The notes under the pieces: model-generated
The model's database searches: none
Told to the model about the DNA's origin: nothing
What the model saw: the letters and a program-made list of their open reading frames with translations, nothing else
Shown here: positions 9,462-39,744 of the stretch, in pieces
Layout of the letters: the number at the start of each line of letters is the position of its first letter
Numbering within the stretch: the first letter of the stretch is position 1
Program-made: the position numbers and the translations under genes
DNA from: an uncultured Micrococcales bacterium
GTDB lineage: Bacteria > Actinomycetota > Actinomycetes > S36-B12 > UBA10799
Length of the DNA: 50,245 nucleotides
Direction of reading: 5' to 3'
Assembly: GCA_937952095.1 (NCBI GenBank)
Contig: CALFYG010000327.1
Span: forward strand, 1-50,245

Positions 9462-9478
9462 CAAAATGGCAGGATGGT

Positions 9479-9546
9479 GGCGGGGGATTCCTCACAGTGC
9501 ATGTGCTAATCGCTGTGTCAGAATCACAACACCCCGCCCCCTTTCT
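9479..9546 (+). other. GC-rich nested stem-loop followed by TTTCT (terminator-like or small structured RNA)
   Basis: GGCGGGG (9479-9485) pairs with CCCCGCC (9533-9539). An inner CACAG/CTGTG stem is enclosed. A T-rich run follows. It lies in the only sizeable non-coding gap (9462-9606) of block A. Confidence 0.25.
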
Positions 9547-9606
9547 AAAGCAGATTGCGGTCTGTTTTGGTGAGGAATTTAACCACTAGAAACTAAGGAG
9601 AATGAA

Positions 9607-10069: not shown

Positions 10070-10191
10070 CCGTCTTGGAGAACGCCCACTCCATTGTCGG
10101 TGTCGGCCCCGACGACGCCGCAGCGATCGCCCGAACCCGGAACCTGGTCGCCGCCAGGCTGGCCGAGGTCACGTGGGACTCGGAGCGATGA
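10063..10191 (+). CDS. Hypothetical small protein, 42 aa
   Basis: Translation MVTVLENAHSIVGVGPDDAAAIARTRNLVAARLAEVTWDSER. GC3-rich. ATGA overlap with the next gene. May be the truncated end of a longer gene if the junction is artificial. Confidence 0.3.
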   Translation: MVTVLENAHSIVGVGPDDAAAIARTRNLVAARLAEVTWDSER

Positions 10192-11851: not shown

Positions 11852-11920
11852 GCATTCCCGGGTGCGATGCTGTCGGGGTCGACTCGGGGTCGACGCTGGA
11901 CAGTGATCCGAGGAGGCCCG

Positions 11921-14398
11921 GTGCCACTCAACCGACGACGCTCTGGTGAGCCACGCACCGCCGCAGTGGTGGCGGCCTCGGATTTGCGGGGGCGGCTGCG
12001 GTCGTCGGCGAAGGCCCGGACGTGGCAGCAGAAGGTCATCAGGTATGACCGGGAGGGTCCGTCGGTCGCCGGGTACTACCTGGACACGGTGCAACTGCTG
12101 GCGACGTTGTGCCCGCTGATCGGTGAGCGGCGCGAGGCGGACGGGACGTGGTCCCGGGTGAACGACCCGGTGGTGACCCGGGCGATCGCATCCTTCTCCA
12201 GCCCGATGTATTCGACGGCGGAACTGTTCGCCTTGCCGGTGCGGCACTTGGATGCGATCGGCGAGTCGTGGGTCATGTTCTCGGCCGACATCGGTTGGTG
12301 CGTGGCGACCGTCCCGAACGTGAAGATCATTCACGGCGGGAATGCTGTCGAGTTCACCGACCCGTACGGCCTGACTCGGCGGGTGCCGAAGGAGCGGGCG
12401 TTCCGGTTGTGGACCCAGGACCCGTACGAGCCGTGGCTGCCGACGTCGGCGATGCAGCGTGCCCTGCCGGACTTGCGGCGCTTGGACGCCGCCTGCCGTA
12501 ACCAGACCAGGTCGGCGGAGTCGCGGCTCATCATGAACGGTCTGGTGGCGTTCCCGCCGGATGAGGGTCCGACCCGTGCCTTGGGCCAACCGGCGGACGG
12601 GCGGGTGTTGACGGGTGTCGAAAAGACGGTCGATGACTTCATCACGATCGGGCAGGAGGCGTTCAATGACGACGACAGTCCGGCAGCGTCGATGCCGTTC
12701 CCGTACATCGGCGGGAAGGCCGAGTACGTCCAGGTTGGGCGCCCGGTGGACGAGCAGGTGCTGGAGGTCGAGAAGGCGGCGCTGGAAGCGTTCGCCCGGG
12801 GTGTCAACTTTCCGGCACAGCTCCTGACGGTCGGCCCGGGTTCGGCGAACCATTGGAACGAGTGGATCCTGCAGGAAGTGCAGCACAAGATGGGCTTGGC
12901 CCCGAAGCTGCGGCCCGTGTGCGATGCCCTGACGACGATCTTCCTGCGGCCGCTGCTGGAACGGATCAAGACCCGGGTGACGTCCTGGGACCTTGACCCG
13001 TCGGAGATCCGGCTCGGGTTCGACCTGGACTTCCTCACGTCGAAGCCGGACCAGTCGGCGCAGGCGTTGCAGGCGTGGGCGCAGGGCATCGTCGGCCGGG
13101 AGGGTGCAGCCCAGATGCTGAAGGTCCCCGAGTCGTGGCTGTTGCCGATCCCCGACGGGATGACCGAGTACGAGCATTGGGAGTTGGCGACCGGAAGCAA
13201 GGGCGCCCCGTACGCCGAGGTGGACGGTGACGGCAAGCTGATCGTCCCGCCGCCGGATCCGGGTATGGGCGGGGATCCGGGTATGGGCATGGACCCGTAC
13301 GGCGGGGATCCAGGCATGGGCGAGGATCCGTCGGCACTGGACGAGGCCCCGCCCGACGGTTCCGACGACCTGTTCTCTGCCCCGTACGACCCGCCCCGGG
13401 CTCGGATGTCGGCCGCATCGGACCCGAACAGGTTGAACGTGCTGTTGGCCGAGCTGGTCATCGTGGACGACCGCCTCACGCAGAACCTGTCGGGCGTCAG
13501 CCGAGTCCTGTCCGAAGCGATCACCGTCGAGGCCGTCAAAGAGGGTCTACGGGCGATGGACCGTGACGACCCGTTGCGGGCCGAGTTGCGGGAGATGCCG
13601 TCCCAGAAGGCGTGGCGGGAACTGCCCGACGAGGCCAAGGCGCAGGTCGACACCGTCGGGGTGGCGGAACGGACAGCGGCCAAGTACGAGGGGATCGTCT
13701 CCGGGTTCCTGTCCGAAGCGGCCGCCGACGCCGAGAAGGCGTGGACGATCTTCGGGGTGCCCGCCCCCGAGTTCCTGGTGGCCGCCGGGGCGACAGCGTT
13801 CCTGGTGGCGACGGTGGACGCCGCCGCCGGATTCCTCGGCGGGGTCACGATCGGACCCCTGAAGGCCACGTTGGATGCAGCGCAGGCTGGTCTGTTGACG
13901 GCGGCTGTCGTCGGTCTGTTGCCGGTGCGGGCTGCGATGGTGGCCGCCGCCGGGGCGAGGGTCGACTTGGACGGCCGGGTGGTGCAGTCGCCGGGCGGAA
14001 CCCCGTACGGGCCGGGTGGCGGGCCGTGGGAGGGTGCGTTGGGTATGGCGCTGGGCGACCCGTCGATCGCACAGATTCGGACGGTCGCTGAAGAGGAAGC
14101 GGCCGGGACCCCGGGCGAGGGACTGTCGGATTCCGACACCCCTTCTGGCGGGGGACCCGGATCCGGGGGTGCCGGGCCGGGAGCCACTCCTGGTCAACCG
14201 CCCGGGGGTGCCCGGACGGCCCACGTCCAGTTCAGGTGGGCGCACGGGTTCTTCGGCAACCCCGAGACGCCGTTCCCGCCGCATGAGGCTCTCGACGGAC
14301 GCCGGTTCGACTCACTCGCCGACGTGCCCTACGGCCTGTACCCGGGTGACCATGCCGGATGCCGGTGCGGGTTCATCCCCGAGATCAAGGTCGTGTGA
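11921..14398 (+). CDS. Portal protein fused to a C-terminal MuF-like (SPP1 gp7 / Mu F) minor head protein domain
   Basis: GTG 11921 follows GAGGAGG (the ORF track ATG 11867 is the alternative). The N-terminal ~430 aa look portal-like (..SAESRLIMNGLVAFP.., ..GSANHWNEWILQE..). The C-terminus, FPPHEALDGRRFDSLADVPYGLYPGDHAGCRCGFIP, matches the MuF signature. A DPGMG repeat linker lies between them. Confidence 0.75.
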   Translation: MPLNRRRSGEPRTAAVVAASDLRGRLRSSAKARTWQQKVIRYDREGPSVAGYYLDTVQLLATLCPLIGERREADGTWSRVNDPVVTRAIASFSSPMYSTAELFALPVRHLDAIGESWVMFSADIGWCVATVPNVKIIHGGNAVEFTDPYGLTRRVPKERAFRLWTQDPYEPWLPTSAMQRALPDLRRLDAACRNQTRSAESRLIMNGLVAFPPDEGPTRALGQPADGRVLTGVEKTVDDFITIGQEAFNDDDSPAASMPFPYIGGKAEYVQVGRPVDEQVLEVEKAALEAFARGVNFPAQLLTVGPGSANHWNEWILQEVQHKMGLAPKLRPVCDALTTIFLRPLLERIKTRVTSWDLDPSEIRLGFDLDFLTSKPDQSAQALQAWAQGIVGREGAAQMLKVPESWLLPIPDGMTEYEHWELATGSKGAPYAEVDGDGKLIVPPPDPGMGGDPGMGMDPYGGDPGMGEDPSALDEAPPDGSDDLFSAPYDPPRARMSAASDPNRLNVLLAELVIVDDRLTQNLSGVSRVLSEAITVEAVKEGLRAMDRDDPLRAELREMPSQKAWRELPDEAKAQVDTVGVAERTAAKYEGIVSGFLSEAAADAEKAWTIFGVPAPEFLVAAGATAFLVATVDAAAGFLGGVTIGPLKATLDAAQAGLLTAAVVGLLPVRAAMVAAAGARVDLDGRVVQSPGGTPYGPGGGPWEGALGMALGDPSIAQIRTVAEEEAAGTPGEGLSDSDTPSGGGPGSGGAGPGATPGQPPGGARTAHVQFRWAHGFFGNPETPFPPHEALDGRRFDSLADVPYGLYPGDHAGCRCGFIPEIKVV
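13256..13330 (+). repeat. In-frame degenerate 18-bp tandem repeat (DPGMGG x4) in the portal-MuF linker
   Basis: The sequence reads GATCCGGGTATGGGCGGG / GATCCGGGTATGGGCATG / GACCCGTACGGCGGG / GATCCAGGCATGGGCGAG. Confidence 0.85.
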
Positions 14399-17300
14399 TG
14401 GCGAAGCTGCCCCGAGACGGCGATAGTGACGGCCGCATCTTCGACGGCACGAAACGGGAGATGCCCGCCCCGACGAAACTGGTCGAGGTGGCCGAGAAGG
14501 CCGCCCGGGTCGTGGACGATGTGGACGATGTGGACGATGTGGACGTTCCGTCGCGGGTCAACTCCGGTGACGCCGACCGGCCGCTGGTCGACCCCGATGT
14601 TGTGGCACCGGGCGGATCGATCGGTCCGACAATCCTGTCCGAGCCGTGGCCGACCGGTCCGCCCAGTCCGAACACGGGGTGGAGGCTGCCGTTGGACGAC
14701 GTGACCCTCCCGGGCGGTCGCCGCGTGAAGATCGTGTCCCACGGGGGCGACTCCCGGGACGGCTACTACTCGTCGTCCTATGTGGCGTTCGACGCTGACA
14801 GCGGGGGCAAGCTCGGCTACCTCGACTATCAGCTCGGCCACGGCGAACTGCACATCGGCATGGTGTCCACCAACGACGACGTTCGGGGCGAAGGCGTCGC
14901 CGACGCCCTTCTCGGCCGCACGCTCGCCGACGCCGACCCCGGTTCGACCGTGTTCAGCGGGTACAAGACGGACGAGGGTGCAGGTTGGTGGGACCACGTC
15001 GCCCCGATCCTCGCCGATCGTGGGTTCGAAGTTGGCGACCCCGGATTCGCCCTGGACGCCCCGGACGCCCCGGACGCCCCGGACGCCGGTGGTGAGCGGC
15101 TCGATCCCTTGTCGATCACCCGTTCAGGCAGCCCGGTCCGTTGGAAAGAGGGTGGATGGCAACCCGGCACCCCGACGCGTTGGGTGAAGGGCGACGCCTC
15201 CCAACGGACGATCGACGCCCGGATGCGGGCCGTGCGGGCGCTCATGGAGGACGAACTGCCCCAACTCAAGGGCAAGAAGTTCACGGTCGACACTTGGCTC
15301 AACTACGACGAGTTCCATGCTGACCACCCGTACGGCGGTGACGCTGCCGGGGTGGCCGGGTGGCGGCCCGAGCTGGGCGAGCACGGGTCGGTGTACGTCT
15401 CCCCGGAAGTGACCCGGGGCCTGGCTCGCAACGACCGGGAGGCCGTGCGGGACTGGCGGATCGTCATGCACGAACTGGTGCATGCGGCATCCCCGCAGAC
15501 CGTGTCGAACAGCGGGCCGGAACCGGTCATGGAAGAAGGGATGGCGGAGATCCTCTCGGCCGACATCGCTGCCCGCCGCTTGGACCTGGCTGGGTTCGCG
15601 AGCGACGGCCGCCACGGCGCCCCGAAGTGGACCGAGATGGAAGGGCTCGCTGTTGGCGCCAACTACAAGGACCGGGTGGCGGCGCTCATCATGAACGCCG
15701 GGCAACGCACCGGCTGGGACCGTGACGCCACCCGGGCCATGCTGCGCGACTGGTGGGACGGCGGCAGCTACAGCCCTTATTTCCGGCGGATCGAACGTCG
15801 CGACGACGGACTCGACCCGGACGCCTACACGGCGAAGCAACGCGACGAGATCAACGCCCGGTACGACGACCTGATCGCCCGGCTCCCCGAACACGCCGAC
15901 GAGTACGAGGCCGACCGGGCACGCGAACTGGCTGACGCGACGACCCCCGACGGCGACTGGCGCTGGCAGGCCAACCAGGAATGGGAGAAGGGTGTCGAGT
16001 CGGCCCGCTCCCACGGCGTGGACGTCGACCGGATCCCGTTCGACTACACCAACGAGCCGTACTGGGACCTCGCCGACTCCAGGGAAGTGGTCGCTGAACG
16101 CGACACGGTCGGAGCGTCCCTGCTCTACTGGCTGCTCGACGGGTCCGACGGGCGCACCGCCGAAACCGCCACCACGGTGGAGGCCCCGACGACCGAACAC
16201 CCGACCGGGGACCGTTTCGGGTCGCTCGCCGATGCCACAGGTGCGGGGAAGGTCACGGTCACTGACGCCGACGTGAAGCCCGGCATGGTGACCGTCGACA
16301 ACGGGGGCGACCCGTTGCTGCACATCCAGGCTCCGGGTGACAAGCCGGACACTTGGGTAGCGGTCGACGGTGCGGGCGGTGGCCGCACATACCGCCTGCC
16401 CGGATCGGTGGACGTGGCCGCCATGGCCCGGTCCGATGACCCGGGGGCAGCGTTGGCGGCCGATGCGGCGCTGCGGGGACCGTGGCGCAACCGTCGCCCC
16501 GTGTCGGCCCGGCGACGGTCACAAGCGTTCAACCTGCTGAACGAGGTGCAGGCTGCACCGATGGCCGACGAGCCACTGGTGGCGGCACCCGACCCGGACG
16601 TGTTCGACGGCTCCGACCTGAAGCCCGGCGACCGGTTCGACGTGCCGGTCATGTCGGCGGTCCCGGCCGATGGGGCGTGGCCGACCCGCACCGGGGGCGA
16701 CCACACGGCGGGACTCGCCGAAGGGTGGGCGAGGCTCGACCCGGAGACGCGTGGTCTGCTCGACTCCGGTGACGTCGAACAGATGGGCGCCCGCATGGCC
16801 CCGGAACCCCGGACGGTGCTCCGGTTCGACACGTCGCGGGCTCTGCCTGGCGAGGGTGGCAGTCACACCGTCACCGGCCGGTTCGTCGTGGACGGGGTCG
16901 AGGACGTCGAGGATCCCGACGGGCTCCCCTACTGGGACGGTGCCGGATTCCGGCAGTCCCCGGCCCGGGTGGTGCGGGCGCACTGGGTCGAGGACGTGGA
17001 CGCTCCTGACGGCCGCGGGCCGGTGGCGACCCCGCCGGGGTGGACACGGCAAGGTCCACCAGTGTTGGACGATTGGACGACGCGCGAACCGGTCGGCGGG
17101 TGGGCGAGCGAGGCGGACCGGATCCGGGCGGCGCAGACGTGGCCGACCGGGTCACAGGCGGTGACCTTCACTTTCGGGGACGGCGACGGGCGCGTCGACA
17201 TGGCGGTCCATGAGCCGTGGCAGATCGACCAGCAGAAGCTCGCACAGTTGGGTTCGACGGTGGCGACTCTCCAGCGGTCGTTCCAGCCGCCGGTGCCGTC

Positions 17301-20154: not shown

Positions 20155-20344
20155 CCGTCACGACCCGATTGGCCGACTTCCGGTCGTCGTCGGCCACGAC
20201 GACACGAACGACGCCGACGAGGCCCGTGAGATCGAGGAGCAGAACGCGTTCAACGATGAGCTGGAGGCGTTCGCTCGGACCCTGTATCCCGACGGCATCC
20301 TCCCGCGGGAACGGAAGCGGATGGAGGCCGAACAGGCCGAGTAG
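20138..20344 (+). CDS. Hypothetical acidic small protein, 68 aa
   Basis: ATG 20138 after GAGGAGGTGG. It is the internal start of the alternative-frame ORF 19460..20344. Overlaps the end of the giant ORF by 17 nt. Confidence 0.45.
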   Translation: MSPQSDRHDPIGRLPVVVGHDDTNDADEAREIEEQNAFNDELEAFARTLYPDGILPRERKRMEAEQAE

Positions 20345-20378
20345 GACCACCGTCGGGACGGCACGCCCGGCGTCCAGA

Positions 20379-21602
20379 ATGGGGCGCATGGCCGCCCCTG
20401 ATCCTGCCGCCCCGTTCCCGGCCCCGTGGAACCCGCCCCGGTCGTGGTTCTCGGAGATCCCCGACTGGTTCGACCCGGACGGCGGGCTCATCCAGTTCGA
20501 CTGGGAGACGGGCCGGGTGGCTGCGATGGTCGCCCCGTACGGCGACTGCATCCTTGACGGGTCGAAGCAGTGCTGGAGTCCGCCCGTCTCGCAGACAGGC
20601 TACGAGTACGCCCACGTCGGGACGTGTGTTCTGGAGGACGGCGAGACGATCCGGGTGGCGACGATCGGCGGAGGCGTCCCGCATGCCAGCCTGCGGGCGG
20701 CCATGTCGGTCGCCCAGGACCACTACGCCAACACGGCGACCCGCAAGCTGGTCGGGCGGTACGTCGACTCGCCCGAAGCGGGCGGGATCGTGTTCCTCGG
20801 TTCGGCGCAACCCGGACTCACCTACGCCGACGTGTACGACACCCTGTCGTCGGCCGTGTCCGGCGACTGGCGGTGGATCCCGGCGCTCGGCGGCTACGAG
20901 ATGGTCGGCGCCCAGTTGGTCAACAGCCCCGGGTTTCGTCCCGTGCCCGGCGGCAAGCGTGTGCGGGCGGCTGCGATCAACTTTCTGTCGGGCGGTCCGA
21001 AAGTGGCTGCTGCCAAGTGTGGCGGCGGCGAGCAGGTGTACGGGGAGTGGGTGCCGATCGAACTGGAGTCGACTCCGGGGCTCGGTGACCGGGTCGCCCG
21101 TCTGGCGGCGGCTACTGCCGCCCTGGAGTTGGCGGCGGTGGTGGACGAGGAGATGCCACCGGCTCGCACGGCGGGTCTGTTCCGCCGCAAGCATCCCCTG
21201 TCGCCCGCTGAACTGGCGCAGCGGAAGAAGGCGGCGCTGATCTCGGCGATGAAGCGGCGAGGCAACCGGCGTCTCGGCCGGTACGCCCCGGACGGTACCG
21301 GCCCTAAGCGGCGAACAGCCTTGGATGATTCGCCGGTGTTGGACGCCGCCAAGCGGTCGCGGTCCAGCAACCTGAGGGGGCTGTCCAAGGATCAGGCTCG
21401 TCGGATCCGCGAGGTGAACCGGCGCAACCTGGCTCGCGAGCGGGCCGAGCGGACCGACATGGAGGTTGGGCTGTTCGAAGCGCGGGGCGACGTGGATGCG
21501 GAGATCAACGAGCGGCGCATCGCCAAGTACCGGCGCACTCATCCCCGCAAGGAATACCCTCGCCGTGTCGCATCGGCCGCAACGATCACCAAGAGGTTCT
21601 GA
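20379..21602 (+). CDS. Putative capsid maturation (prohead) protease with a long basic C-terminal extension
   Basis: Internal ATG (20379 or 20388) of ORF 20046..21602. WFSEIPDWFDP..GRVAAMVAPYGDCILDGSKQCWSPP..YEYAHVG..SGDWRWIP..AQLVNSPGFRP resembles actinophage capsid maturation proteases as I recall them. Placement between portal and capsid genes fits. Confidence 0.5.
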   Translation: MGRMAAPDPAAPFPAPWNPPRSWFSEIPDWFDPDGGLIQFDWETGRVAAMVAPYGDCILDGSKQCWSPPVSQTGYEYAHVGTCVLEDGETIRVATIGGGVPHASLRAAMSVAQDHYANTATRKLVGRYVDSPEAGGIVFLGSAQPGLTYADVYDTLSSAVSGDWRWIPALGGYEMVGAQLVNSPGFRPVPGGKRVRAAAINFLSGGPKVAAAKCGGGEQVYGEWVPIELESTPGLGDRVARLAAATAALELAAVVDEEMPPARTAGLFRRKHPLSPAELAQRKKAALISAMKRRGNRRLGRYAPDGTGPKRRTALDDSPVLDAAKRSRSSNLRGLSKDQARRIREVNRRNLARERAERTDMEVGLFEARGDVDAEINERRIAKYRRTHPRKEYPRRVASAATITKRF

Positions 21603-21609
21603 CACCACC

Positions 21610-24600
21610 ATGCCTGCTGAACGACAGGACCACCCCGCCCGCACCGCCGCCGGGCGGTCCTTCCGTGCCTTGCCGAAGATGGTCGGGGGCAAGGTGATCG
21701 ACGGTGACGGCGACATGCGGGTACTCGACGGCACCAAGATGGAACGGGCAGCGACCCCCGCCGAACTGAAGCTGTCCCGCAAGCTCCGGGCGCTCGCCAA
21801 GGGTGGAGGCGGCAAGCGCCGCACCCGGGGACCGGTCACTCGCCGGACCCGTGATCGGGACGCCCTCAAGGCCCAGGCGCTCACCAACGCCCGCAAGAAG
21901 GTTCGGCGGCGCCCGACGACCGAAGCGCCGTCGAAGGCCCACATGCAGAAGAAGGGCCGGGCCGCATGGGGCAAGGTCGACCGGGTCGACATGATCGACG
22001 TGCCCGAGGGCGACGACGAGACGGTCGGCGCCGAGGTCGACGGACTCAAGATCCGCCTGCCCCGCAACGGCGGCCGCCCCTACATCGACACCGAGAACGG
22101 CCCGGTGCCGCTCGACGGGGTGTTCGTGTCCCGCCCCGAGGTCGACGCTCTCCTCAAGGGCTCCAAGGACACGTTCGACGCCGACAAGTTGACCCCCGAA
22201 CAGCACGACGCTGTCCAGTCCGCATGGGGCAAGGTCGACCGGCTGCACGGCGGGCAGACCGTGTCCGGCGAGGACCGGTCCGTGTCCGTCGCCGACATCA
22301 CCGACTCCCACGGCGAGAAGATCGTGTTCAGCGTGCCGGACCGGGGCGGCGAGGTCACCGTCGACTACCGCCGGGACCGGTCCGAGATGACCGACGAGGA
22401 GATCGCCCGGGGTGACGACCCGTGGCTGACCGACCAACCGACTGGCATCTTCCTCGACGAAGCCGAGGTCGACGCCAAGCGCCAAGGCAAGGCTGCACCC
22501 GAGTTGGACGCCAAGCGTCGCCGCCAGGTCCGTCAGCGGACCGAAGCACCGGTCAAGCCCGAGGGTGACGACTTCGACCGTGCCAACCCGAACAGCGACC
22601 TGTCGGAGAAGCTGATCGAGGACGGCGGGTTCACGATCGACCCGGCCGACGGGTCCGGGCCGACCGTCGGCTATGTGGTCGCCCGCCCCGGCCACTCCAA
22701 GATCATGACCCGCGAAGAGTTCGAAGCGGGCGGCGAACACGACATCAACGAGTACCTCCGCAAGCTGCGGGACGAGGAAGCGAACCCGGACGTGATGCTG
22801 GGCGGGTGGTACGACGCCCGGCACGACGAGATCGTGCTGGACCGGGTCGAAGTGGTCGACTCCGAGGACGAGGCGGTGCGGCTCGGCCAGGAACGCAACG
22901 AACAGGCCATCTGGGACCTGAAGGGGCAGCGGGAGATCCCGACCGGTGGCACCGGGACAGGTGCGGACCGCAAGCCGGTGACGCCCGTGTCGGCCGATTC
23001 GACCGACGCCGACGTCGATCGGTCGTTCGCCGAAGCGGTCGACGCTGCTGTGCCCGAGGCGCGCCGCAAGCGTGTCGCCGAGGGTGGCGGACCCCGGGGC
23101 GACACCGTGAAGGACGCCGTGGCCGAGGACGTGGTCGACATGGCCCGCGAGTCCGGCATGACCGACGACCAGATTCGTGGTGCCCTGGACCGTAACGGTG
23201 GCCCCGACGGGGTGGACCGGGCGTCGTTCGACAAGGCGCTGGACCGTCCCCGTCCCGACGACATGAGCGGAACCTCACCTTCCGAGGGTGACGTGACCGC
23301 CGGTCGCGCCCTCGCTTTGCAGCGGGTGAAGGATGCGGCGTCGACCACACCGGCAACGTCACAGCCGAAGCCGGGATCGCCTGACATCCCCGCCGACGTG
23401 GCCGGTCTGCCCGGCGTCGACTCAGGGTCCGGCACGAAAGAGGATCCGCTGCGGGTGTCGGACATGTCGACGGCCGTGAAGCTCCTCGGTGACGGCAAGT
23501 ACCACATCCAGTTGAACCGCCCGGATGAGGTCGCCACGCTGCTCGACAAGGTCCGCGAAGAGACGGCGAAGTTCAAGGAGCGGGGCGAGAAGGAACCGGT
23601 GTTCAACCTGTGCCTCGTCTCGGTGCCGGGTTCCAACCTCTTCTGTGTTGACGACCAGACGGAGATGATGACGAGTCGGGGATGGCGTCGGTACGACGAA
23701 CTGTCCGTCGGTGACACGGTCCTTACCTTGAACCACGACACCGGCCTGGCCGAGTGGCAGCCACTGGAGGCCGTGAACGTCTTTCCCTCCGAGGACAGGC
23801 TGGTTCTCTCGATGGAGGGTCAGTTCCATTCGTCTCTTACGTCCAGCGAGCACCGGTGGCCTGTTGTCCAAACAAAGACGGGGGCCAGACTCTGGAAGGT
23901 GAGCGAAACGCTCCTGACAACGGACCGCATCCAGACCGTGGCGCCGGTGGCGAATCTCCCGACGGAGCCAAAGTATGAGGACGCCTTCGTTGAGCTGGTC
24001 GCGTGGGTCTGGACGGAGGGCACCTTCGACGGAGCCATGACACGGATCTACCAATCTCACCGCTACAACCCTGGGTACGTCGCCGACATCGCTCGAACCC
24101 TGACGTCCCTGTTCGGCGATGAGCGCGCCGAACTGCAGTCCATTCGCACGGCGCTCAAGGGCGGTAGGACCGGGGCGGTGCGCGCTCCCACCCCGGGGTG
24201 GCGTCGATCCGAGAACGACTCAACGGGCATGACTTCGTTCTTCTTGAACGGGGCGGCCAGCACGGCGCTACGCACCGTGATGGATGGTGACAAGGTTGTG
24301 GACCCATCCTTCATTGCCAGTCTCACCCTGTCGCAGTTGCACCTGTTCATAGATCGCTCGGTCGACGCTGACGGTCATCGTGGCCGAGTGGAAGGCTTCT
24401 CCCAGCGCAGTGTCGAGAGGGTGCGGATCTTTGAGATGGCCTGCGCCCTCGCCGGGGTGAGGACCAACACGACTGAACGGCCAGAGACGCGCCCCGGCAG
24501 GAAGAGTGGCCTCGTCCAGTACCAGGTCGGGGTACTGCGACGGTCATCGCCGTACACGTCGCCCATGTCGACCAAGAACCGACCAGAGTGCCGGACGAGA

Positions 24601-25473
24601 GTGGAGTGGGTCCACCACAAGGGGATCCTGTGGTGCCCCACCACGCCGAACGGAACCTGGCTGGCGCGACGTAGGGGCACAGTGTGGTACACGGGCAACT
24701 GTGCCGATAGCGTGGGTTACGACCGTATTCGCATGCCGCAGTTGTCGACGGCCAACCCGGTCCCCGGGTCCTATGCCGACTCCCTGCCCCGCAACGGCAA
24801 GGGCGAAGTGGACTTGACCGAGGACTTCCTCAAGTGGCTGGAAGAGGTCAAGGGCATCAAGGTGAAGCGGGGCACCAAGGTGTACGCCTCGCATCTGCGG
24901 GCATCGCAGGCCGAGCTGCGGGGCGGCAAGGTGACCGGCATGATGGAAGGCATGAAGGCGGGCAAGGTTCCGCCCGGTGTCATCTCGCAGACCAGCGACG
25001 GTTACATCATCGACGGACACCATCGTTGGGCGGCCAACACGGGCCTGTCCATGGGCGGATCGAACCCGGTGATGGAGACGAACACGATCGACGCCGACAT
25101 CGTCACCATCCTCGCTCTCGCCAACCAGTTCGCATCCGACATGGGGTCCCCGCCGATGGCTGCCAGCGTCTCAGGTCGCACCACGAAGCCCGTCCTGTTC
25201 TTTGCCGGGGTCGACCGGCCAGAACAGTCCAAGGCGTTCACCGAGGTCGGGTGGCTCACCCCCGACGGGTTCGCTCCCACCCCCGTGTGGGGTGACCTGC
25301 CGGGCACGGATCCGGCCACCGTGTACGTCGGTGACGCCCCGTGGGCCGGGATGGACCCGGACGGCCTGTACGACTCGGCGGTCGTGATGGCGTCGCCGGT
25401 GTTCACGACGGACGCCCCGGACGTGGCCGACCCGCCGGAACTGGTCGACCCGCCCGACTCGGCGTTCGGCTGA
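21610..25473 (+). CDS. Polyvalent-type protein (1287 aa precursor) with an N-terminal DxDxDG motif, an internal WGKVDR duplication, and a ParB/Srx-like DGHHR domain interrupted by an intein
   Basis: ATG 21610 lies 8 nt after the protease stop (the ORF-track start 21466 overlaps the protease gene). ..SQAELRGGKVTGMMEGMKAGKVPPGVISQTSDGYIIDGHHRWAAN is ParB/sulfiredoxin-like. The intein is at 23644-24699. Confidence 0.7.
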   Translation: MPAERQDHPARTAAGRSFRALPKMVGGKVIDGDGDMRVLDGTKMERAATPAELKLSRKLRALAKGGGGKRRTRGPVTRRTRDRDALKAQALTNARKKVRRRPTTEAPSKAHMQKKGRAAWGKVDRVDMIDVPEGDDETVGAEVDGLKIRLPRNGGRPYIDTENGPVPLDGVFVSRPEVDALLKGSKDTFDADKLTPEQHDAVQSAWGKVDRLHGGQTVSGEDRSVSVADITDSHGEKIVFSVPDRGGEVTVDYRRDRSEMTDEEIARGDDPWLTDQPTGIFLDEAEVDAKRQGKAAPELDAKRRRQVRQRTEAPVKPEGDDFDRANPNSDLSEKLIEDGGFTIDPADGSGPTVGYVVARPGHSKIMTREEFEAGGEHDINEYLRKLRDEEANPDVMLGGWYDARHDEIVLDRVEVVDSEDEAVRLGQERNEQAIWDLKGQREIPTGGTGTGADRKPVTPVSADSTDADVDRSFAEAVDAAVPEARRKRVAEGGGPRGDTVKDAVAEDVVDMARESGMTDDQIRGALDRNGGPDGVDRASFDKALDRPRPDDMSGTSPSEGDVTAGRALALQRVKDAASTTPATSQPKPGSPDIPADVAGLPGVDSGSGTKEDPLRVSDMSTAVKLLGDGKYHIQLNRPDEVATLLDKVREETAKFKERGEKEPVFNLCLVSVPGSNLFCVDDQTEMMTSRGWRRYDELSVGDTVLTLNHDTGLAEWQPLEAVNVFPSEDRLVLSMEGQFHSSLTSSEHRWPVVQTKTGARLWKVSETLLTTDRIQTVAPVANLPTEPKYEDAFVELVAWVWTEGTFDGAMTRIYQSHRYNPGYVADIARTLTSLFGDERAELQSIRTALKGGRTGAVRAPTPGWRRSENDSTGMTSFFLNGAASTALRTVMDGDKVVDPSFIASLTLSQLHLFIDRSVDADGHRGRVEGFSQRSVERVRIFEMACALAGVRTNTTERPETRPGRKSGLVQYQVGVLRRSSPYTSPMSTKNRPECRTRVEWVHHKGILWCPTTPNGTWLARRRGTVWYTGNCADSVGYDRIRMPQLSTANPVPGSYADSLPRNGKGEVDLTEDFLKWLEEVKGIKVKRGTKVYASHLRASQAELRGGKVTGMMEGMKAGKVPPGVISQTSDGYIIDGHHRWAANTGLSMGGSNPVMETNTIDADIVTILALANQFASDMGSPPMAASVSGRTTKPVLFFAGVDRPEQSKAFTEVGWLTPDGFAPTPVWGDLPGTDPATVYVGDAPWAGMDPDGLYDSAVVMASPVFTTDAPDVADPPELVDPPDSAFG
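23644..24699 (+). mobile_element. Intein (352 aa) with a LAGLIDADG-type homing endonuclease insert
   Basis: Starts with Cys (..GSNLF/CVDDQTEMMTSRGWRRYDELSVGDTVLTL, block A). Block B-like SSLTSSEHRWPV. Endonuclease-like VELVAWVWTEGTFDG and LHLFIDRSVDADGH. Ends ..ILWCPTTPNGTWLARRRGTVWYTGN/C with the terminal Asn followed by a +1 Cys. Confidence 0.75.
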
Positions 25474-25476
25474 CCG

Positions 25477-29532: not shown

Positions 29533-29533
29533 C

Positions 29534-32500: not shown

Positions 32501-35500
32501 GGGGAGCAGACGGCGACCCTCGGGGCGATCCAACTCGTCAACGGCGCCATGACCGGACCGGAGCTTCCTGACGGGCTGGTCGACAGTCTGCGGGCCGGGG
32601 ACCTGTCGGCGCTCAACCACAACCCGGCCGAGAGCGGCTCGTTCTTCCAGACGGGTGCGCCGTTCTCGGACGCCCAGGCCGGTGGCGACATGGCGGCGGC
32701 TGTCCGTCGGGTGGCGATGGCGATGGGGCCGGGGCCGGACCGGGTCAACTTCATGGCCGACGCGTTCGACGCCATCGACACCTACGACTTCGGTGGCGAG
32801 TGGGACGGGATCTCGGTGTGGGATCCGACGTCCGAGGCCTACACGAAGCGACCGTTCACCGACAACGAGAAGGCGGTTGTCAGGGCGGCGTTCAAAGTGG
32901 GGCTCGCTCGGGACATGGGGATCGTGGGCACCACCCCCGCCATGGAGTCGGTCCCGTTCCAGGGCCACAAGCTGGTGTACGAAGGCCCGTCCGACATCAA
33001 GGTCGACCTGTCCAACTTCGGTGCCGAGCAGCGGATACCTGGCCGGTTCCGCATGGTCGACGCCGACACCCCGGCCGCCGACGTGTTCCCCGACCGCACC
33101 CCAAGGGTCGCCGAACGGGACGACGTGGTCGACACGGGCCGTGTGATGAAAGACGTGACCGAGGGTGACATCCTCGTCCACGACGGACGGATGGTGATCG
33201 TCACGTCCTACGACTGGCCCGACGGCGTCGGCGACGACGTGACCGTGTGGGCCAACGACGCCCTCACCGGCGACCCGCTGGAGTGGGAGTCGACCGGCGG
33301 TGAAGTCATGCCGGTCGTGCCCGGCAGCCCGGGCCTGGTCGACACCACCGACGTGCAGCCCGGCATGATGATCGCCCACCCGGAAACGGGTGAACGGGTG
33401 CTGGTGTCGCGCCTGTTGCCGCAGTCGGATTGGGATGAGAACGAGATCGAAGTGGTCACCGCTCCCGGTCAGCCGCCGACAACTGTGCGGACGACGATGG
33501 ACCAGCTCGTCGTGTTCGGTGACGACGACGCCGGATGGGCGAGCGTGTCGGCATCGTCGGTCGCTCCCGGCGACCGGGTCCAGACGTTCTACTCGGGCAC
33601 GACGGTGGTCGGCACAGTCACCGCCGCCACCAAGAACGACGACGGCGGGGTCGATCTCGACATCACTTTCGACACCCCCGTGTACGGCGACACCGAAGCG
33701 TCCCTCTGGTTCGACGACGGCGACGAGATCGACAAGCTGACGTTCGCAGCGTCGGGCAGCGCCGTGTACCGGGAAGTGTCCACCGGGGACCTTCGACCCG
33801 GGATGACCATGTTCGACTGGGCGAAGTTCGGCAGCGACGACGACCGGTTCACAATCACGGACGCCAAGCAGAAGAGCGACGGGTCGTGGGCCGTGTCAGG
33901 CACTTGGCAGGACGGCGACCCTGACACTGTCGTCTTGCAGGACGGGGCGACGGTCAAGGTGCTCCCCACCCCGCCAACGCCTACCGCTGCGAAACCGACC
34001 ATCAAGGCGGTGGGTTCACCGTCGGGATCCGGGTGGTCGACACCGAAGGCGATCAAGGCGGGGACGGCGTTCTGGTCCGGCGGGCAGTGGTACGGAGCCA
34101 CCAGGGACGCCGAGATCCGCGACGACGACTGGTACGAGGTGGAAGCGACCCCGTTGTTCGGCGGCGGGGCGACAACGACCCTCAAGGGCGCTCCGTCGGA
34201 TAGCCCGTCGTTCCTGGTGGACGGCAAGGTGCGGGCCATGCAAGCCGACCAGCTCTATCCGGGCATGCAGGTCGACCTGGCCGGGGACGGACAGATGCGG
34301 ACGATCGGGCTCGTCGCCCATGACGGCGACACGGTGAAGATCAAGTTGGGGCCGTCGACATCCAAGGACAAGATCCGCGACGTGACGTTGGACGGGTCGT
34401 CGGTCGTCGCCACCGTGCTCCCGACCCCCATCACCAAGGCCGAAGTCAAGGTCGGTGACGTGATCGTCAGCCCCAAGGGTCCTGTCGTCGCCATCACGCC
34501 CGGGTCGGAGTCCGCGCTGGCGTTCGGCCCGGATTCCGAGCCGTTCCAGCTCACCAGGCCGGATGCCGGGTGGACGATGCTCGGCAACGCGACGGCACGG
34601 GGCGATTCCCTGCGCCGTGCGGACGAGCTGATCCCCGGTGACCCGGTGCGGATTCCGTCGTCTGGGATTGGTGTTGTGGAGTCCGTAGCCCCAGGAGCGG
34701 GGACCAATGTGGATATCACGTTCACCAATGGTCAGACCATCTCCATGTTCTCGGCCAGAGGGGTGTCGCTTGCCGGGACTCCCGTCCTGTGGCCCGACGT
34801 GGTTCCGGGCACCGAGGTCGGTGGCCGTGACGTCGCGAACGTCGAACATCTCGGCGGGGGTGTCGTCCGGGTCGACTGGGCGGACGGTGACCCGCAAGTG
34901 TTCGGCCCGCACGACGTGGCCCGGGTGACGAGGTCGCCGAACCCCGCAACGGTCGCCGTTCCCACGGCGCCAATACCCGTTCTCGACAACGAGAAAGTGG
35001 CGCTCGGGAAGTTCATGTACCTGGGCAGCAGCTTCGGGCTTGTCACCAAGGTTGCCGCGACGGAGGGCAATGGGCTGACCGTCACCCTGCAGACAGACGA
35101 GGGTCTGCTCGACGTGCCCGGCATCGGACCGGGCGGGTCGACCCTCGCCCTGCTCGGCATCGGCGAGAACGACGACATGATCCCGGTCGGGTCGGTGCGG
35201 GCCGGTGACGTGATCGTGGACACCGACGGCCTGCCACACTACGTCGAGGTGGTGGCACCGTCAGGGTCGACCACGGTGAAGCTCACGCTCGCCGACAGTG
35301 CCGTGCCCGTGTTCGTCGATTCCGGCGAACAGGTGATCCGGGTGGACAGCGGCCCGGACGGGGACGACATCCCCAACCCGCAGGACATCGCCGTGACCCC
35401 GGAGAAGGTCGGGACGGGCCACTACAGGAAGCTGGCCGATGACGTCACCCGTGACATGCTCGACAACGGCGACATCCGGGTCTGGACCCCGAGCGTCGCT

Positions 35501-35881: not shown

Positions 35882-35896
35882 CCGAGGAGGGATCTC

Positions 35897-36154
35897 ATGA
35901 CCCTGATCCACGACTTCAACGACCCCGAACCAACGCTGCCCCGCACCCTGCACGGTTTCCTGGCCCTGCCCGGATTCGATCCGGCCCCCGTCTGGTCCTA
36001 CGCCGGGGTCACCCCGGACGACACCGTGTTCGTCGGTGACCCGTCCGACCCGGACAACCTGGTGACCACCGACATCGTGGCGGTGGCGCTGTCGCCATAC
36101 TTCCGCCAGCCGGGCGACGTCGACACCGTGCCCGCTTCTCTGCGCCGCCACTGA
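35897..36154 (+). CDS. Hypothetical 85-aa protein homologous to the C-terminal module of the 21610 protein
   Basis: GFDPAPVW..TVFVGDPSDPDNL..IVAVALSPYF aligns with GFAPTPVW..TVYVGDAP..DPDGL..AVVMASPVF at 25249-25410. GAGGAGGG RBS is present. Confidence 0.5.
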   Translation: MTLIHDFNDPEPTLPRTLHGFLALPGFDPAPVWSYAGVTPDDTVFVGDPSDPDNLVTTDIVAVALSPYFRQPGDVDTVPASLRRH

Positions 36155-36182
36155 TACGTCCGACTGACATGATGGGGCCACC

Positions 36183-38708
36183 ATGGCCGACCAGACCGAT
36201 CTCATGGACGTGGCCGTCGACTCGGCCGTCGCCGCTTTCGACGTGTTCGTCGCCGGGGAAACCGAGGACGGGTCGCGCCTACTGACGTTCGACCCGCGGA
36301 CCCCCGTGTCGGCGACGGTCGTGTGGCGCGAGGGTGCCCCGGACGCCCTGTTGACGGTCGCCCAGGTGGAGCAGGAGACGCCGGGGATCGTCTGGTACGC
36401 CCTCCCTCCGCCAGCGGTTGCTCCCCGCACCGCAGCCGCCGATGCGCCGCCCGAGGATGCGGCACCGGTCGAAGCCCCCAAGGTGGACGAGGCGCTCGTT
36501 GCCCGCCAGCAGGCCACGCTGGACGAGGTCGAGGAACGCATCGGTGAGATCGAGGGCCGGGTCGCTGCCGTCATGTTGCGGTCCATGACCGACGAACTGT
36601 TCGACGGCGACGAACCCGAGGCGGACGATGACGGCGAGGCCAAGACGGCGTCGGCCGGGTTCGTCGAACCGCTCGGCCTTGTCCTGGCCCGCTTGGCCGC
36701 TCTCGGCGAACCGGGCAATGAGGCGGTCGAGGTTCGTATCGAGGAACTGTCGGGACGGCTCGACGCCTTGGAAGCGGCGGTCGCCGACCTGCTCGCCGAC
36801 AGTGGCCCGGACGAGGATCTCGACCTGCCTGATCCGACGGCGACGACCGTGGACGAGACGCTACCCCGCGACGAACAGGGCGGTGGCCATATTGCTGCGG
36901 CGGGGAGGCCGAAGCCCCGCCCTTTTGACCCGTCGAAGTTCCGCCCGGGGCGTCCGGTCGACGCCGACGGTGACGGGTTCGTCTATGACGGCACGATCCG
37001 TCAGCGGCCTGCCCTGCCGCCGCTGCCCAGGGGGAAGGGTGACCGTCTGGACATCCGCGCCCCGGGTGAGTGGGATGACAGGGTGAGGACCCCGGTGCGG
37101 GAGAAGGCCGGTCGCTCTCGCGGCCAGTGGGTCGAGGTCCAAGAGTCGGACCACACGCTGGCCTTGCCGGACGGCCGCCGGGTGAGCGTCAACGTGTCCG
37201 GCGAGTCCGCCCGACGCCACGTGCTGTCAACCCCGACGGTGTCGACCGGCCGCAAGGGTGAGGGCATCGAGGTGAGGGGCCGACTCCGCACCGGCGAAGC
37301 GACGTGGATGGTGGTCGACGGCGACCAGACCTTCCACGGCAAGGTGCTGACATCCAGCTTCCACTTGGTGGCCGACGAGCTGGAGATGCAGCCGGACGAG
37401 TCGCTGGAGCATTTCCGCGAGCGGGCCAAGAAGTGGGCCGTGGACCGGGCGACGAAGCGGTACCCGTTCTCGGTGGGCGACACGGTCGACGGCGGCGGTA
37501 AGCGGTGGACGGTCACCGGGTACACCGAGTCCGGCAACCCACTGGTGCGACCGATCGACTCGACCAGTGGCAAGTCTCGGGCGATGTTGGCCGACAAGCT
37601 CATCAAGGTGGTCGACCCCGACGACGTGGTGGAACCAGGCAAGCCGGACGGTCTGGCCTTGCGGCCACCACCAGCGTTCGACGTGGACGCCTTCGTCGCC
37701 GACCATCCCCGCCAGCCGGGCGAGAACTTCTTCGACTGGCAGGGCCGCATCGTCGCCGACCTGCCGCCGCAGTTGCAGTCCGACGTGCTGTTCAAGACCC
37801 GCGAGGTCTACCCGCCGTCCAGGTTCATCGCCGACGGGATCGCCCGCTGGCAGACCGAACACGGGCTGCCGCCGCTGCCCGACAACCTGATCGACACGCC
37901 GGTCGACTTGGAAGAGGCCGACGACGTGGCTCGCTTCTTCGAAGGCGCACCGGACATGTCCGACGACCCGGACGTGCGGGCTGCCTACGAGGACTTCAAG
38001 GCACAGTCGGCCGAGCAGTGGGACTTCATGACCCGACCCGAATCGGAGGGCGGGATGGGGATCACCGTCGACTTCACCGACCAGGTGGACCCGTATGCGA
38101 CGGCCGAAGAGCAACGCAACGACCTGGAGCAGAACCACCACTTGACGATCCAGTCGGGGCTCGGTGGCGACCATTCCGGCACGATGACCCAAGAAGAGTA
38201 CGACCGGTTCCGAGCGGTCCACGACGTGTTCGGACACGCCGGGATCGGGTCCGGTTTCGATCGGCACGGCGAGTACGAGGCGTGGCTTGTTCACGCTGCG
38301 ATGTACCGCGGCCAGGGTCGCCGGGCGATGTCGACCGAGTACCACGGCGTCAACTCGGCCATGTGGACGGGGGCTCCGGGTTCGCCGGGGACCGGCAAGT
38401 CTGTGCTGCTGCCCGACGAGTTCGGCGAGCCGCCGTGGTTGCGGGCCGACAAGCTGGGCGGCTATTCGGACTCGTACCTGTTGCAGCTCTGGTACTCGAA
38501 GGATCAGACCCCCCAGTTGCGGGCAGAGCTTGTCCGTCGGGGGATCTTGCCGAAGGCGGCCGCCGTGGACGATGTGGACGATGAATCGCAGCCCGACTCG
38601 TCCGACCCGGTCGACCGGCTGATCGAACTGCTGGGCCTGACAGACAAGTTCGCAGCCCTGTTCGACACCCTGCCGCTGCACGAACTACCGGAGGACGAGG
38701 ACCGATGA
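36183..38708 (+). CDS. Large head-module protein (841 aa): acidic/coiled-coil N-terminus, DxDxDG motif, SH3-like unit, C-terminal HDxFGH domain
   Basis: DADGDGFVYDGT at 36960-36995. C-terminal FRAVHDVFGHAGIGSGFDRHGEYEAWLVHAAMY is not assignable to a named family from memory. Confidence 0.55.
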   Translation: MADQTDLMDVAVDSAVAAFDVFVAGETEDGSRLLTFDPRTPVSATVVWREGAPDALLTVAQVEQETPGIVWYALPPPAVAPRTAAADAPPEDAAPVEAPKVDEALVARQQATLDEVEERIGEIEGRVAAVMLRSMTDELFDGDEPEADDDGEAKTASAGFVEPLGLVLARLAALGEPGNEAVEVRIEELSGRLDALEAAVADLLADSGPDEDLDLPDPTATTVDETLPRDEQGGGHIAAAGRPKPRPFDPSKFRPGRPVDADGDGFVYDGTIRQRPALPPLPRGKGDRLDIRAPGEWDDRVRTPVREKAGRSRGQWVEVQESDHTLALPDGRRVSVNVSGESARRHVLSTPTVSTGRKGEGIEVRGRLRTGEATWMVVDGDQTFHGKVLTSSFHLVADELEMQPDESLEHFRERAKKWAVDRATKRYPFSVGDTVDGGGKRWTVTGYTESGNPLVRPIDSTSGKSRAMLADKLIKVVDPDDVVEPGKPDGLALRPPPAFDVDAFVADHPRQPGENFFDWQGRIVADLPPQLQSDVLFKTREVYPPSRFIADGIARWQTEHGLPPLPDNLIDTPVDLEEADDVARFFEGAPDMSDDPDVRAAYEDFKAQSAEQWDFMTRPESEGGMGITVDFTDQVDPYATAEEQRNDLEQNHHLTIQSGLGGDHSGTMTQEEYDRFRAVHDVFGHAGIGSGFDRHGEYEAWLVHAAMYRGQGRRAMSTEYHGVNSAMWTGAPGSPGTGKSVLLPDEFGEPPWLRADKLGGYSDSYLLQLWYSKDQTPQLRAELVRRGILPKAAAVDDVDDESQPDSSDPVDRLIELLGLTDKFAALFDTLPLHELPEDEDR

Positions 38709-39455: not shown

Positions 39456-39662
39456 ATGGGGTCATGTTGCGGTGGTGCTCCGGCGGCGGTGATCGACCCG
39501 TTCCGGGCCGGGGACGAAGGCTGGACGGTCATCTATCCGCACGAAGCTCAGCGGCTGTTCCCGTCGGAGGAAACGGCCCGGGCGTTCATGGACTCGTCGC
39601 ACTTGCGGGGCCGGTTCACGCTGGTGTCCCCGGACGGCGATGTTGTCGTCGTCCCCGATTGA
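39456..39662 (+). CDS. Hypothetical small protein
   Basis: ATG lies 1 nt after the upstream stop. Good GC3 bias. No family recognised. Confidence 0.45.
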   Translation: MGSCCGGAPAAVIDPFRAGDEGWTVIYPHEAQRLFPSEETARAFMDSSHLRGRFTLVSPDGDVVVVPD

Positions 39663-39744
39663 TCGTTTCTGGCACATCCGCCCGGAAGGATGACACCCGT
39701 AATCGGGGTGATCCCGAACGGCTCGCCACAGGAGACACAGGCAC

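Follow-up and report, generated by a model that had tools for sequence, protein, structure and literature searches.

We describe here a 24.3-kb cassette of five giant genes (G1-G5) that separates the portal and major capsid genes of a phage present in a 50,245-nt stretch of DNA deposited for an uncultured Micrococcales bacterium (assembly GCA_937952095.1, contig CALFYG010000327.1; this whole stretch is hereafter called the window). We consider it probable that the cassette encodes virion-associated cargo of an uncultured and widespread actinobacterial phage of ~53 kb, itself probably short-tailed, and that the cargo combines enzymatic functions with a role in the tail. Support for the cargo comes from the position of the cassette in the head operon, the coupling of its genes, the conserved MuF-like end of the neighbouring portal protein and fusions between prohead protease and cargo in two relatives. 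What the sequence comparisons show is the gene structure, the domain identities, a modular build with leader motifs, the fusions of protease to cargo, the variation between strains and a genome lacking tail genes.

Five coupled giant genes lie between the portal and capsid genes

The cassette and the head genes around it are arranged as follows, in window coordinates.

11867..14398, + strand: portal gene (phrog_776, E = 3e-43; start placed at 11921 in gene calls elsewhere)
14398-20154, + strand: G1, 1918 amino acids (aa)
20379..21602, + strand: prohead (capsid maturation) protease gene, 407 aa (phrog_859, phrog_29860)
21610-25473, + strand: G2, 1287 aa
25477-29532, + strand: G3, 1351 aa
29534-35881, + strand: G4, 2115 aa
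36183-38708, + strand: G5, 841 aa
38705..39454, + strand: p249, 249 aa, K+R 21% (Pfam DUF7218, E = 1.6e-9)
39745..41514, + strand: major capsid protein gene, 589 aa (phrog_777 major head protein, E = 4.6e-19), marking the right end of the cassette

The coordinates and sizes of the five + strand open reading frames (ORFs), with the protease gene among them, agree with those given in an earlier reading of this DNA made without database searches (the original prediction), and independent gene calls on other assemblies recover the same G1-G5 products. The coupled junctions that it reported also hold at the base level: a TGATG overlap at 14396-14400, a 3-nt gap at 25473/25477 and a 1-nt gap at 29532/29534. 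Further coupling is seen at 38705, where an ATGA overlap joins G5 to the next gene, p249. The share of 60% that had been assigned to the giant ORFs is right for block B, the GC-rich part of the window (9999-50245), but the cassette makes up ~46% of the real ~53-kb genome.

The possibility that G1-G5 are artefacts of high GC content was rejected on the basis of codon-position GC, the ratio of nonsynonymous to synonymous substitution rates (dN/dS) and conserved homologues. GC at third codon positions (GC3) is 0.83-0.87 across the cassette and GC2 is ~0.5, as in the portal and capsid genes, and dN/dS values of 0.09-0.18 for G1, G5 and the N-terminal half of G4 indicate purifying selection. The very long antisense ORFs in this region (29918-33379, - strand, 1153 aa; 39616-41556, - strand; and 12331-14187, - strand) are high-GC artefacts because their codon-position GC is the inverse of that of real genes.

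Enzyme modules of the giant proteins

The proteins are built from modules, several of which are headed by one of two leader motifs, A and B; their layouts are given here in residue numbers of each protein.

G1: motif A 7-18; GNAT-like region ~58-208; zincin-like module 1 235-590; HEWGH 1038; 2H phosphoesterase 1277-1376; motif A 1417-1428; DUF7178 1529 to ~1860
G2: motif A 31-42; mid domain 331-490 (C-terminal part of phrog_3170); ParB/Srx-like domain ~600-1190; DGHHR 1135
G3: handle with motif B 1-106; conserved mid region ~500-700; DraT-like R-S-ExE ADP-ribosyltransferase (ART) 834-1068; C-terminal ~280 aa
G4: handle with motif B 1-109; DraT-like ART 765-1001; ~11 repeat units ~1190-1950; C-terminal ~170 aa
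G5: coiled-coil-like N-terminal region; motif A 260-271; dispensable middle 299-488; conserved C-terminal domain ~535-841

From catalytic signatures alone, the original prediction had recognised in these ORFs a 2H phosphoesterase, a ParB/Srx-like DGHHR domain, two R-S-ExE ART-like domains, a GNAT-like acetyltransferase motif and two HExxH zincins; profile, family and structure searches support the first three assignments and, less firmly, the GNAT and the first of the two HExxH motifs. The 2H phosphoesterase of G1 matches Pfam 2_5_RNA_ligase2 (PF13563) directly and above its cut-off (E = 9.6e-10, 39.1 bits against a cut-off of 27), matches TIGR02258 at E = 0.001 and contains both HxT motifs (HLTL at aa 1279 and HVTF at aa 1367). 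Homologues of this domain adjoin the capsid protease, or are fused to it as in Gordonia phage Lilbeanie, in ~90 Gordonia phages. At the far end of G1, DUF7178 is found with a Pfam E = 6.9e-23, which is above Pfam's own cut-off. The GNAT-like match of G1 is also direct, but at E = 0.0012 and 19.4 bits it stays below the cut-off of 30; a 55%-identical homologue of this module at an equivalent position in a jumbo-phage contig (L027, described below) passes the Pfam threshold with 30.4 bits to Acetyltransf_CG (E = 4.4e-7).

As for the two HExxH motifs, shuffling of the five proteins gives an expected count of 0.10 (P ~0.005). The first, HELVH at aa 358, is followed ~20 aa later by EEGMAE and lies in a conserved module of ~350 aa that is 42-51% identical in the large proteins P0161-P0167. 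Seven residues of this module (H124, E125, H128, E145, E146, A149 and E150) are invariant in 10 sequences, among them those of HELVH and EExxAE. Its AF2 model (pLDDT 76.6) has an element order that fits the published zincin core and, among its weak Foldseek matches, zincin, SprT and M48 proteins are enriched; no Pfam peptidase model matches this G1 module. We regard the first module as zincin-like with moderate support, whereas the second, HEWGH at aa 1038, is a motif only.

G3 and G4 are paralogous, and the ART region that they have in common belongs to a large family. A word-seeded homologue search with full-length G3 returned its own lineage only, whereas an exhaustive HMMER search with a G3/G4 ART profile returned 831 representatives. 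In an alignment of 60 diverse members R105, E171 and E173 are invariant and S131 is nearly so; 27 of the 60 match Pfam DRAT (PF07357), with a best E = 2.4e-11, and P0012 passes Pfam's own cut-off. Phage_Mu_F is carried by a single member of the 60. The direct DRAT match of G4 has E = 0.062 and G3 has none, and profiles of the ART regions found no ART among PDB sequences. P0007-P0011 have the whole G3 architecture in common. These family-level data support the presence in G3 and G4 of predicted DraT-like ARTs of the R-S-E type.

The ParB-like domain of G2 has 73 homologues, aligned across the splice junction of the intein described below. Its invariant positions are R69, MPQ72-74, Q130, Y162 and DGHHRW165-170, the last of these in 33 sequences. 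In the AF2 model of the domain (pLDDT 85.7), the top ~35 Foldseek matches in the PDB are all sulfiredoxin, ParB, Noc, KorB or SbnI, with probabilities of up to 0.98 and E values of only 0.02-0.1 over ~100 residues. The direct Pfam match is ParBc_2 at E = 0.24, and PF02195 is matched by two distant homologues.

The ParB-like domain is interrupted by the following insertion.

23644..24699, + strand: class-1-type intein of 352 aa, G2 aa 679-1030, with Cys679, Asn1030 and Cys1031 (+1)

This insertion is a predicted class-1 intein. Its insertion point falls exactly within 'PGTNLF|C', a motif conserved in the ParB-like domain, across which 32 intein-free homologues are continuous (b894 and P0104 also have no intein), and it is 33-39% identical (E down to 6e-64) to inteins in the portals, terminases and methylases of Gordonia and Mycobacterium phages. 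Its composition is distinct, with a GC3 below that of its host gene, and its C-terminus reads G-N, the penultimate residue being Gly, not His. Removal of the 352 residues would leave a mature G2 of ~935 aa. We also noted that assembly ERZ650311 breaks inside this intein, which may reflect a presence/absence polymorphism.

The C-terminal domain of G5 matches phrog_3170 at E = 6e-20, is 65% identical in a diverged relative of 59% GC (described below) and occurs on its own in ~200 mycobacteriophages and in Streptomyces phage Dagobah.

Leader motifs recur at predicted module starts

The two leader motifs occur at these window positions.

Motif A, (R/K)P(R/V)-DGDGDGF(V/I)YDGT-PxxRP: 14416-14451, 18646-18681, 21700-21735 and 36960-36995
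Motif B, WHDPGNGQF-APRGFST-KALA, followed by a handle of ~100 aa: 25501-25527 and 29558-29584

Motif A was found in 12 instances across three lineages; some are N-terminal, others lie far into the protein or immediately follow a fused protease domain. Its DGDGDGF(V/I)YDGT core resembles the DxDxDG calcium loop. Motif B was found in seven instances and is N-terminal in five proteins, with a further occurrence at residue 1509 of a 2,642-aa protein. A looser leader, RDxxG(R/K)(W/F), is ~15-20-fold enriched at the N-termini of ART-family and ParB-like proteins. Judged by these positions, motifs A and B mark module starts across three to four phage lineages. Since the same motifs are either N-terminal or internal, ORF boundaries shift between genomes while module boundaries are conserved. 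Single copies of another signature, L-x-P-G-D-x-V, which begins the repeat units of G4, are present in G1, G3, G5 and the G3/G4 handles.

In phage T4, a short N-terminal capsid-targeting peptide directs internal proteins to the prohead and is then removed by the prohead protease. We use these capsid-targeting sequences as a working analogy for what motifs A and B may do, although there is no sequence relationship, T4 cargo consists of small, separate proteins and the motifs described here also lie inside long polypeptides. Should the motifs serve as tags for loading or processing, this would account for the entry of such large and variable cargo into the head, and the motifs could then be used to package chosen proteins.

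The cassette varies while the head proteins are conserved

As a check on its own reading, the original prediction had proposed comparing the cassette, expected to be variable, with the portal, protease and capsid genes, expected to be conserved, and this is the pattern seen across both strains and relatives. Among strains, identity is 100% for the capsid protein, 99% for the protease and 98% for the portal, whereas the GNAT region of G1 and the middle or the whole N-terminal half of G5 are dispensable. G1 residues ~29-233, which hold the GNAT region, are absent in most G1 variants (for example L009 and P0155-P0160), the segment lacking in many strains being aa 38-223 in window numbering of G1, and the N-terminal half of G5 is deleted, split or truncated in L002, L005 and L006. 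Strain differences in G4 are confined to aa 1000-2115.

Two further queries (A4 and A8) led to three loci, and two of these, L021 and L027, yielded useful comparisons. In the 59% GC relative (L025 + L021), cargo is distributed over ORFs of 739 aa and 2,642 aa, a fusion of the protease to a ParB-like domain (b894, in L021), one G3/G4-type protein and a G5-like protein; a further 512-aa protein has only the N-terminal handle in common with the window phage. The capsid proteins of the two phages are 62% identical, and three diverged relatives retain the MuF-like portal end at 46-63% identity. Despite their different ORF boundaries, the cassette proteins of the window phage and of the 59% GC relative each total ~7.8-7.9 thousand residues, which could be a coincidence or a constraint of capsid volume.

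Two more distant contigs have a comparable organization. L024 (JGI 3300056831 Ga0558120_02051) is a 102-kb contig of 71% GC that encodes Topoisom_I, PolyA_pol and Zeta_toxin domains and whose protease, part of a 1684-aa protein, has an extension of ~1,450 aa with a ParB-like domain at its end. L027 (IMGVR_UViG_3300013121_000033) is a 225-kb jumbo-phage contig in which portal, HNH and protease genes are followed by handle-plus-GNAT proteins with two GNATs. Both have the layout portal (with MuF-like end), protease and tagged cargo, which indicates that the system is not limited to the ~53-kb lineage. Domains are also shuffled between proteins: ParB-like and ART domains are combined in P0104 and P0098, the G5 domain is joined to an ART in P0055 and to Topoisom_I in L024, and the 7,059-aa protein P0006 contains 11 ART-family stretches.

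A closed ~53-kb genome without recognisable tail genes

The window shows a GC break, from ~44% in 1-9998 (block A) to ~69% in 9999-50245. Contig L007, from an independent metagenome, is 99.97% identical to the window from position 9999 onward only, and upstream of the equivalent point it carries a different, equally GC-rich sequence. This shows that the assembly of the window is chimeric and that block A has nothing to do with the phage. The join at 9999 (junction zone 9990-10070) lies inside a Gly-rich coding tract of GGC repeats. On these grounds we rejected the reading in which block A belongs to the phage; none of the deposited phages matches it.

The true flanks were recovered through exact-protein look-ups. 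Upstream they hold small early genes and genes for WhiB, ERF, DUF932, a ParB-like protein, the large terminase, SSB and a sigma/HTH protein; downstream there are small genes only, and this extension rejoins the upstream one to give a closed map of ~53 kb, in agreement with contigs of 50.9 and 54.4 kb. The large terminase gene (L007:1149-4154, outside the window) matches phrog_979 at E = 4e-60 and contains an intein with a LAGLIDADG signal. The phage thus has two inteins, one in the G2 ParB-like domain and one in its terminase; the 481-aa terminase of L025 is intein-free. The WhiB gene suggests that the host is an actinobacterium.

Metagenomes contain the lineage very often, with a single protein of it present in 833 blocks of a metagenome collection, and many samples yield its contigs as free elements of 35-54 kb. 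We found no close relative among 50,697 deposited phages, and neither a megablast search with the cassette nor a tblastn search with G3 and G4 gave a match in these records. Searches of 185,579 reference genomes with the capsid protein and with a portal profile returned no relative, integrated or otherwise, and a capsid protein query gave no match in IMG/VR. Single-sequence PDB searches with all five giant proteins likewise returned no match.

The closed map contains no recognisable tail, adaptor or tape-measure gene. Beyond G1-G5, the only genes encoding more than 300 aa are those for the terminase, portal, protease, capsid, a glycosyltransferase and DUF932. With no other gene able to build a tail, part of the cassette would have to be structural, and most likely it is the cassette that provides the means of adsorption and delivery as well. 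The original prediction's term, an effector arsenal, is supported as regards the polyvalent-type enzyme domains but is too narrow if it means a pure arsenal, as a tail role is probably needed. That prediction had also named homology to tail or tape-measure proteins as evidence that would count against it; no such profile similarity was found with eight segments of the cassette at E <= 1.

The best tail candidate is the half of G4 that carries tandem beta repeats. Between aa ~1190 and 1950 (33101-35383), G4 consists of ~11 tandem beta-rich units of ~65 aa, each starting with L-x-P-G-D-x-V; the units align at 15-30% identity, with many gaps. The dN/dS of aa 1000-2115 is 0.38-0.56, compared with 0.13-0.18 in the portal, protease, G1 and G4 N-terminal half (0.16-0.18 in the last), and reaches 1.9-3.0 at aa 1600-1700; the counts are small, and they come from strains that are not independent. 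The synonymous rate dS is 0.05-0.06 in the C-terminal half of G4 and 0 in the flanking G5, capsid and glycosyltransferase genes, so this patch looks like a recombinant mosaic. By its substitution pattern, the C-terminal half of G4 appears to behave like a host-recognition or receptor-binding region, not like an enzyme.

A model for the cassette and its alternatives

From the arrangement described above we infer packaging, processing, ejection, host targets and a tail role, in the following way. Modules and head proteins would be expressed together from a single late operon whose genes are tightly coupled, each module being headed by a portable leader, either motif A or motif B with its ~100-aa handle. 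They would most likely enter the procapsid near the portal/MuF protein and the protease, and would probably be cut at module boundaries by the prohead protease and/or by the embedded zincin-like peptidases. At infection the cargo would leave with the DNA, so that the enzymes would act before any phage gene is expressed; these would comprise the two DraT-like, arginine-type ARTs, the 2H enzyme, the ParB/Srx-like domain as an NTP-binding or nuclease function and, in some strains, the GNAT. Part of the cassette would also provide the adsorption and DNA-delivery structure, with the repeat half of G4 as the candidate. As in the original prediction, loading through the portal-MuF protein and subsequent ejection are what we infer from gene placement.

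Several observations weigh against this model. The phage is uncultured and known from sequence alone. About 60% of the 7,512 residues of G1-G5 have no assigned fold, and transmembrane segments, which are found in some ejection proteins, are absent from all five. The MuF-like match covers only the last ~35 aa of the portal and is weak (Phage_Mu_F E = 0.074, TIGR01641 SPP1 gp7 0.036, phrog_324 'head morphogenesis' 0.29). The Pfam models of polyvalent proteins (MPTase-PolyVal, ART-PolyVal, DdrB-ParB and LPDs) do not match G1-G5, and the ARTs are of the R-S-E type, not of the H-Y-D type typical of genuine polyvalent proteins (PMC5512222). The fold search with the zincin-like module was not significant, its best Foldseek E being 0.18 in the PDB and 0.011 in a viral library. 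Finally, G1-G5 have no PHROG tail, tape-measure or internal-virion match, as whole proteins at E <= 0.001 or as eight segments at E <= 1.

One alternative is that the cassette is mostly structural, that is, that G1-G5 are chiefly tail, fibre, wall-penetration and DNA-conduit apparatus whose enzymes act at or in the envelope during entry; the internal core and tail proteins of T7-type and N4-type phages are structural analogues. The closed map offers no other tail genes and, apart from those listed above, its only genes of more than 300 aa are G1-G5, the C-terminal half of G4 is made of recombinant tandem beta units with a dN/dS raised as in receptor-binding proteins, ~60% of residues are without enzymatic assignment and cluster EK podoviruses, of the same genome size, have a giant gene adjoining the portal (PMC7302621, PMC8281081). 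Yet the substrates of the ART (NAD+), 2H (RNA ends or nucleotides), ParB/Srx (NTP or DNA) and GNAT (acetyl-CoA) domains are cytoplasmic, and no other part of G3 and G4 is as conserved as the enzyme domains. Cargo that is fused to the prohead protease belongs inside the capsid and not on the tail, handle-plus-GNAT proteins adjoin portal and protease even in the 225-kb jumbo contig, expected to be large enough to hold tail genes of its own, and no tail-family similarity appears at E <= 1; a chiefly structural cassette is therefore, in our view, unlikely. We think it more improbable still that the proteins are not packaged at all and are late intracellular enzymes for host takeover, anti-defence or genome and RNA maintenance that merely sit in the late operon. 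In other phages the C-terminal domain of G5 and the ParB-like domain do have standalone counterparts outside structural modules, for example near a genome end in Dagobah and at ~55 kb of 155 kb in cluster C mycobacteriophages; nonetheless, host-acting enzymes made late would be of little use unless they travelled to the next cell, translational coupling links the genes to portal and scaffold-like genes, the protease fusions and MuF-like portal end recur in relatives and the phage would be left without any tail proteins.

Phage-inducible islands that form capsids build their own heads and take tails from a helper phage, and a large satellite of this kind, in which the cassette could be pure cargo, would account for a closed map with a full head and packaging set (terminase, portal, protease and capsid) and no tail genes. 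This is the least probable of the explanations that we considered: at ~53 kb the element is several times larger than known capsid-forming islands, no integrase is seen and no integrated relative occurs in the 185,579 reference genomes, it has recombination and replication-type genes of its own (ERF, SSB, WhiB and ParB-like), it is recovered as free 35-54 kb contigs in many samples and the G4 hotspot suggests a host-recognition protein of its own. We thus favour virion-associated cargo with both enzymatic and tail roles. A bolder version, which we offer as a tentative speculation, is that the lineage has merged adsorption, ejection and early takeover into interchangeable modules addressed to the capsid or portal by motifs A and B, with conventional tail genes replaced. 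If so, the tags would be a transferable head-loading code used by jumbo as well as ordinary actinophages, and motif B a variant of a widespread RDxxGRW-type leader.

Relation to known phage-encoded effectors

Polyvalent proteins are encoded beside virion genes, and fusions that join them with MuF, portal or peptidase are described (PMC5512222; PMC9503650). The likeness to the polyvalent proteins of Aravind and colleagues that the original prediction drew is sustained, in that unrelated enzyme domains share a polypeptide whose gene lies among the head genes, beside that of a portal ending in a MuF-like segment, and are reshuffled between proteins. The domain types also agree with those described (PMC5512222), namely zincin-like peptidase, ART, GNAT, 2H and ParB-like domains, with Pol-beta NTase occurring here in relatives, as do the portal-terminase type of phage, the location next to virion genes and the links to MuF, portal and capsid protease. 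However, polyvalent proteins come as one or two per phage, whereas here five consecutive giant ORFs make up ~46% of the genome, with two leader motifs, an intein and tail functions to be covered.

The phages of cluster EK and Burro are podoviruses of ~54 kb with tails of <10 nm and a virion-associated giant gene beside the portal (PMC7302621; PMC8281081); this giant ORF takes up a quarter of the genome and has been proposed to be processed and virion-associated (PMC7302621; PMC8281081). They resemble the present phage in their actinobacterial host, genome size, lack of a tape-measure gene and giant ORF adjoining the portal, but the present phage, known from its genes alone, has five such ORFs with recognisable enzyme domains. 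Since tblastn searches with G1, G3, G4 and G5 against the 50,697 phage records gave no Microbacterium match, the likeness is architectural only.

MuF polymorphic toxins (PMC5576092) and the MuF-VIP2 ART fusions of Microbacterium clusters EH and EJ (PMC7302621) likewise link a head-associated MuF element to variable toxic or enzymatic domains that include R-S-E ARTs. Here, in contrast, the MuF-like element is confined to the last ~35 portal residues, the enzymes are in separate downstream ORFs, the ARTs are DraT-like and not VIP2-like, and no immunity gene is evident. T4 Alt is an R-S-E ART that is packaged in the head and injected with the DNA (PMC5512222). In the Dar system of phage P1, DdrB combines a ParB-like domain with a zincin peptidase in a head-packaged and processed anti-restriction protein (PMC5512222); a ParB-like and a zincin-like domain are present here, although on different proteins, and the ParB-like family of G2 is distinct, with no match to the DdrB-ParB Pfam model.

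The cassette is thus of a known kind, that of polyvalent proteins, and what is new is its scale, its DraT-like R-S-E ARTs, the leader motifs with shifting ORF boundaries, the intein and the lack of a separate tail module. Many phages are believed to disarm their host cell through head-packaged polyvalent effectors within the first seconds of infection, yet experimental studies exist for very few of these effectors. This lineage is extreme yet tractable, with ~46% of its genome given to cargo, catalytic residues that can be mutated, natural gain and loss of modules and leader motifs that predict module starts. The DraT-like ART family, many of whose 831 representatives are in giant proteins, would widen the range of phage ARTs beyond the Alt/VIP2 and H-Y-D types. 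The combination of fast-evolving repeats with no tail module also raises the question of how short-tailed actinophages such as those of cluster EK build their entry apparatus.

Head genes and minor features

The portal protein, which matches 855 actinophage portals, consists of a portal domain (aa 25-421), a long C-terminal extension and the MuF-like end (aa 804-839). Two hydrophobic, membrane-like segments lie at aa 636-694 (13772-13948), just before the MuF-like end. The protease matches 784 actinophage records annotated 'capsid maturation protease' and has a protease domain at aa ~20-230 followed by a basic C-terminal region. A stretch of this region (21174-21278) and p249 have a 35-aa motif in common, with 54% identity, which may be a common capsid-interior or scaffold-binding peptide. 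p249, whose counterpart in the 59% GC relative (f230) is 83% identical over the C-terminus, is possibly a scaffold or internal protein. The capsid protein is 24-26% identical to actinophage major capsid proteins. Directly after its gene, at 42088-44176, there are two glycosyltransferase genes, also found in the 59% GC relative, and some strains (L002 and L013) have a methyltransferase at this site; glycosylation of the capsid or the cargo is a possibility.

A small gene separates G4 from G5.

35897..36154, + strand: s85, 85 aa, called as a gene in all assemblies

It is related to G2 aa 1204-1265 (25219-25404; blastp 41% identity, E = 8e-6), and a similar small ORF of 103 aa lies between giant ORFs in L024. 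In the early region of one strain there is a TnpB/IS605-family insertion (L013:17090-19450).

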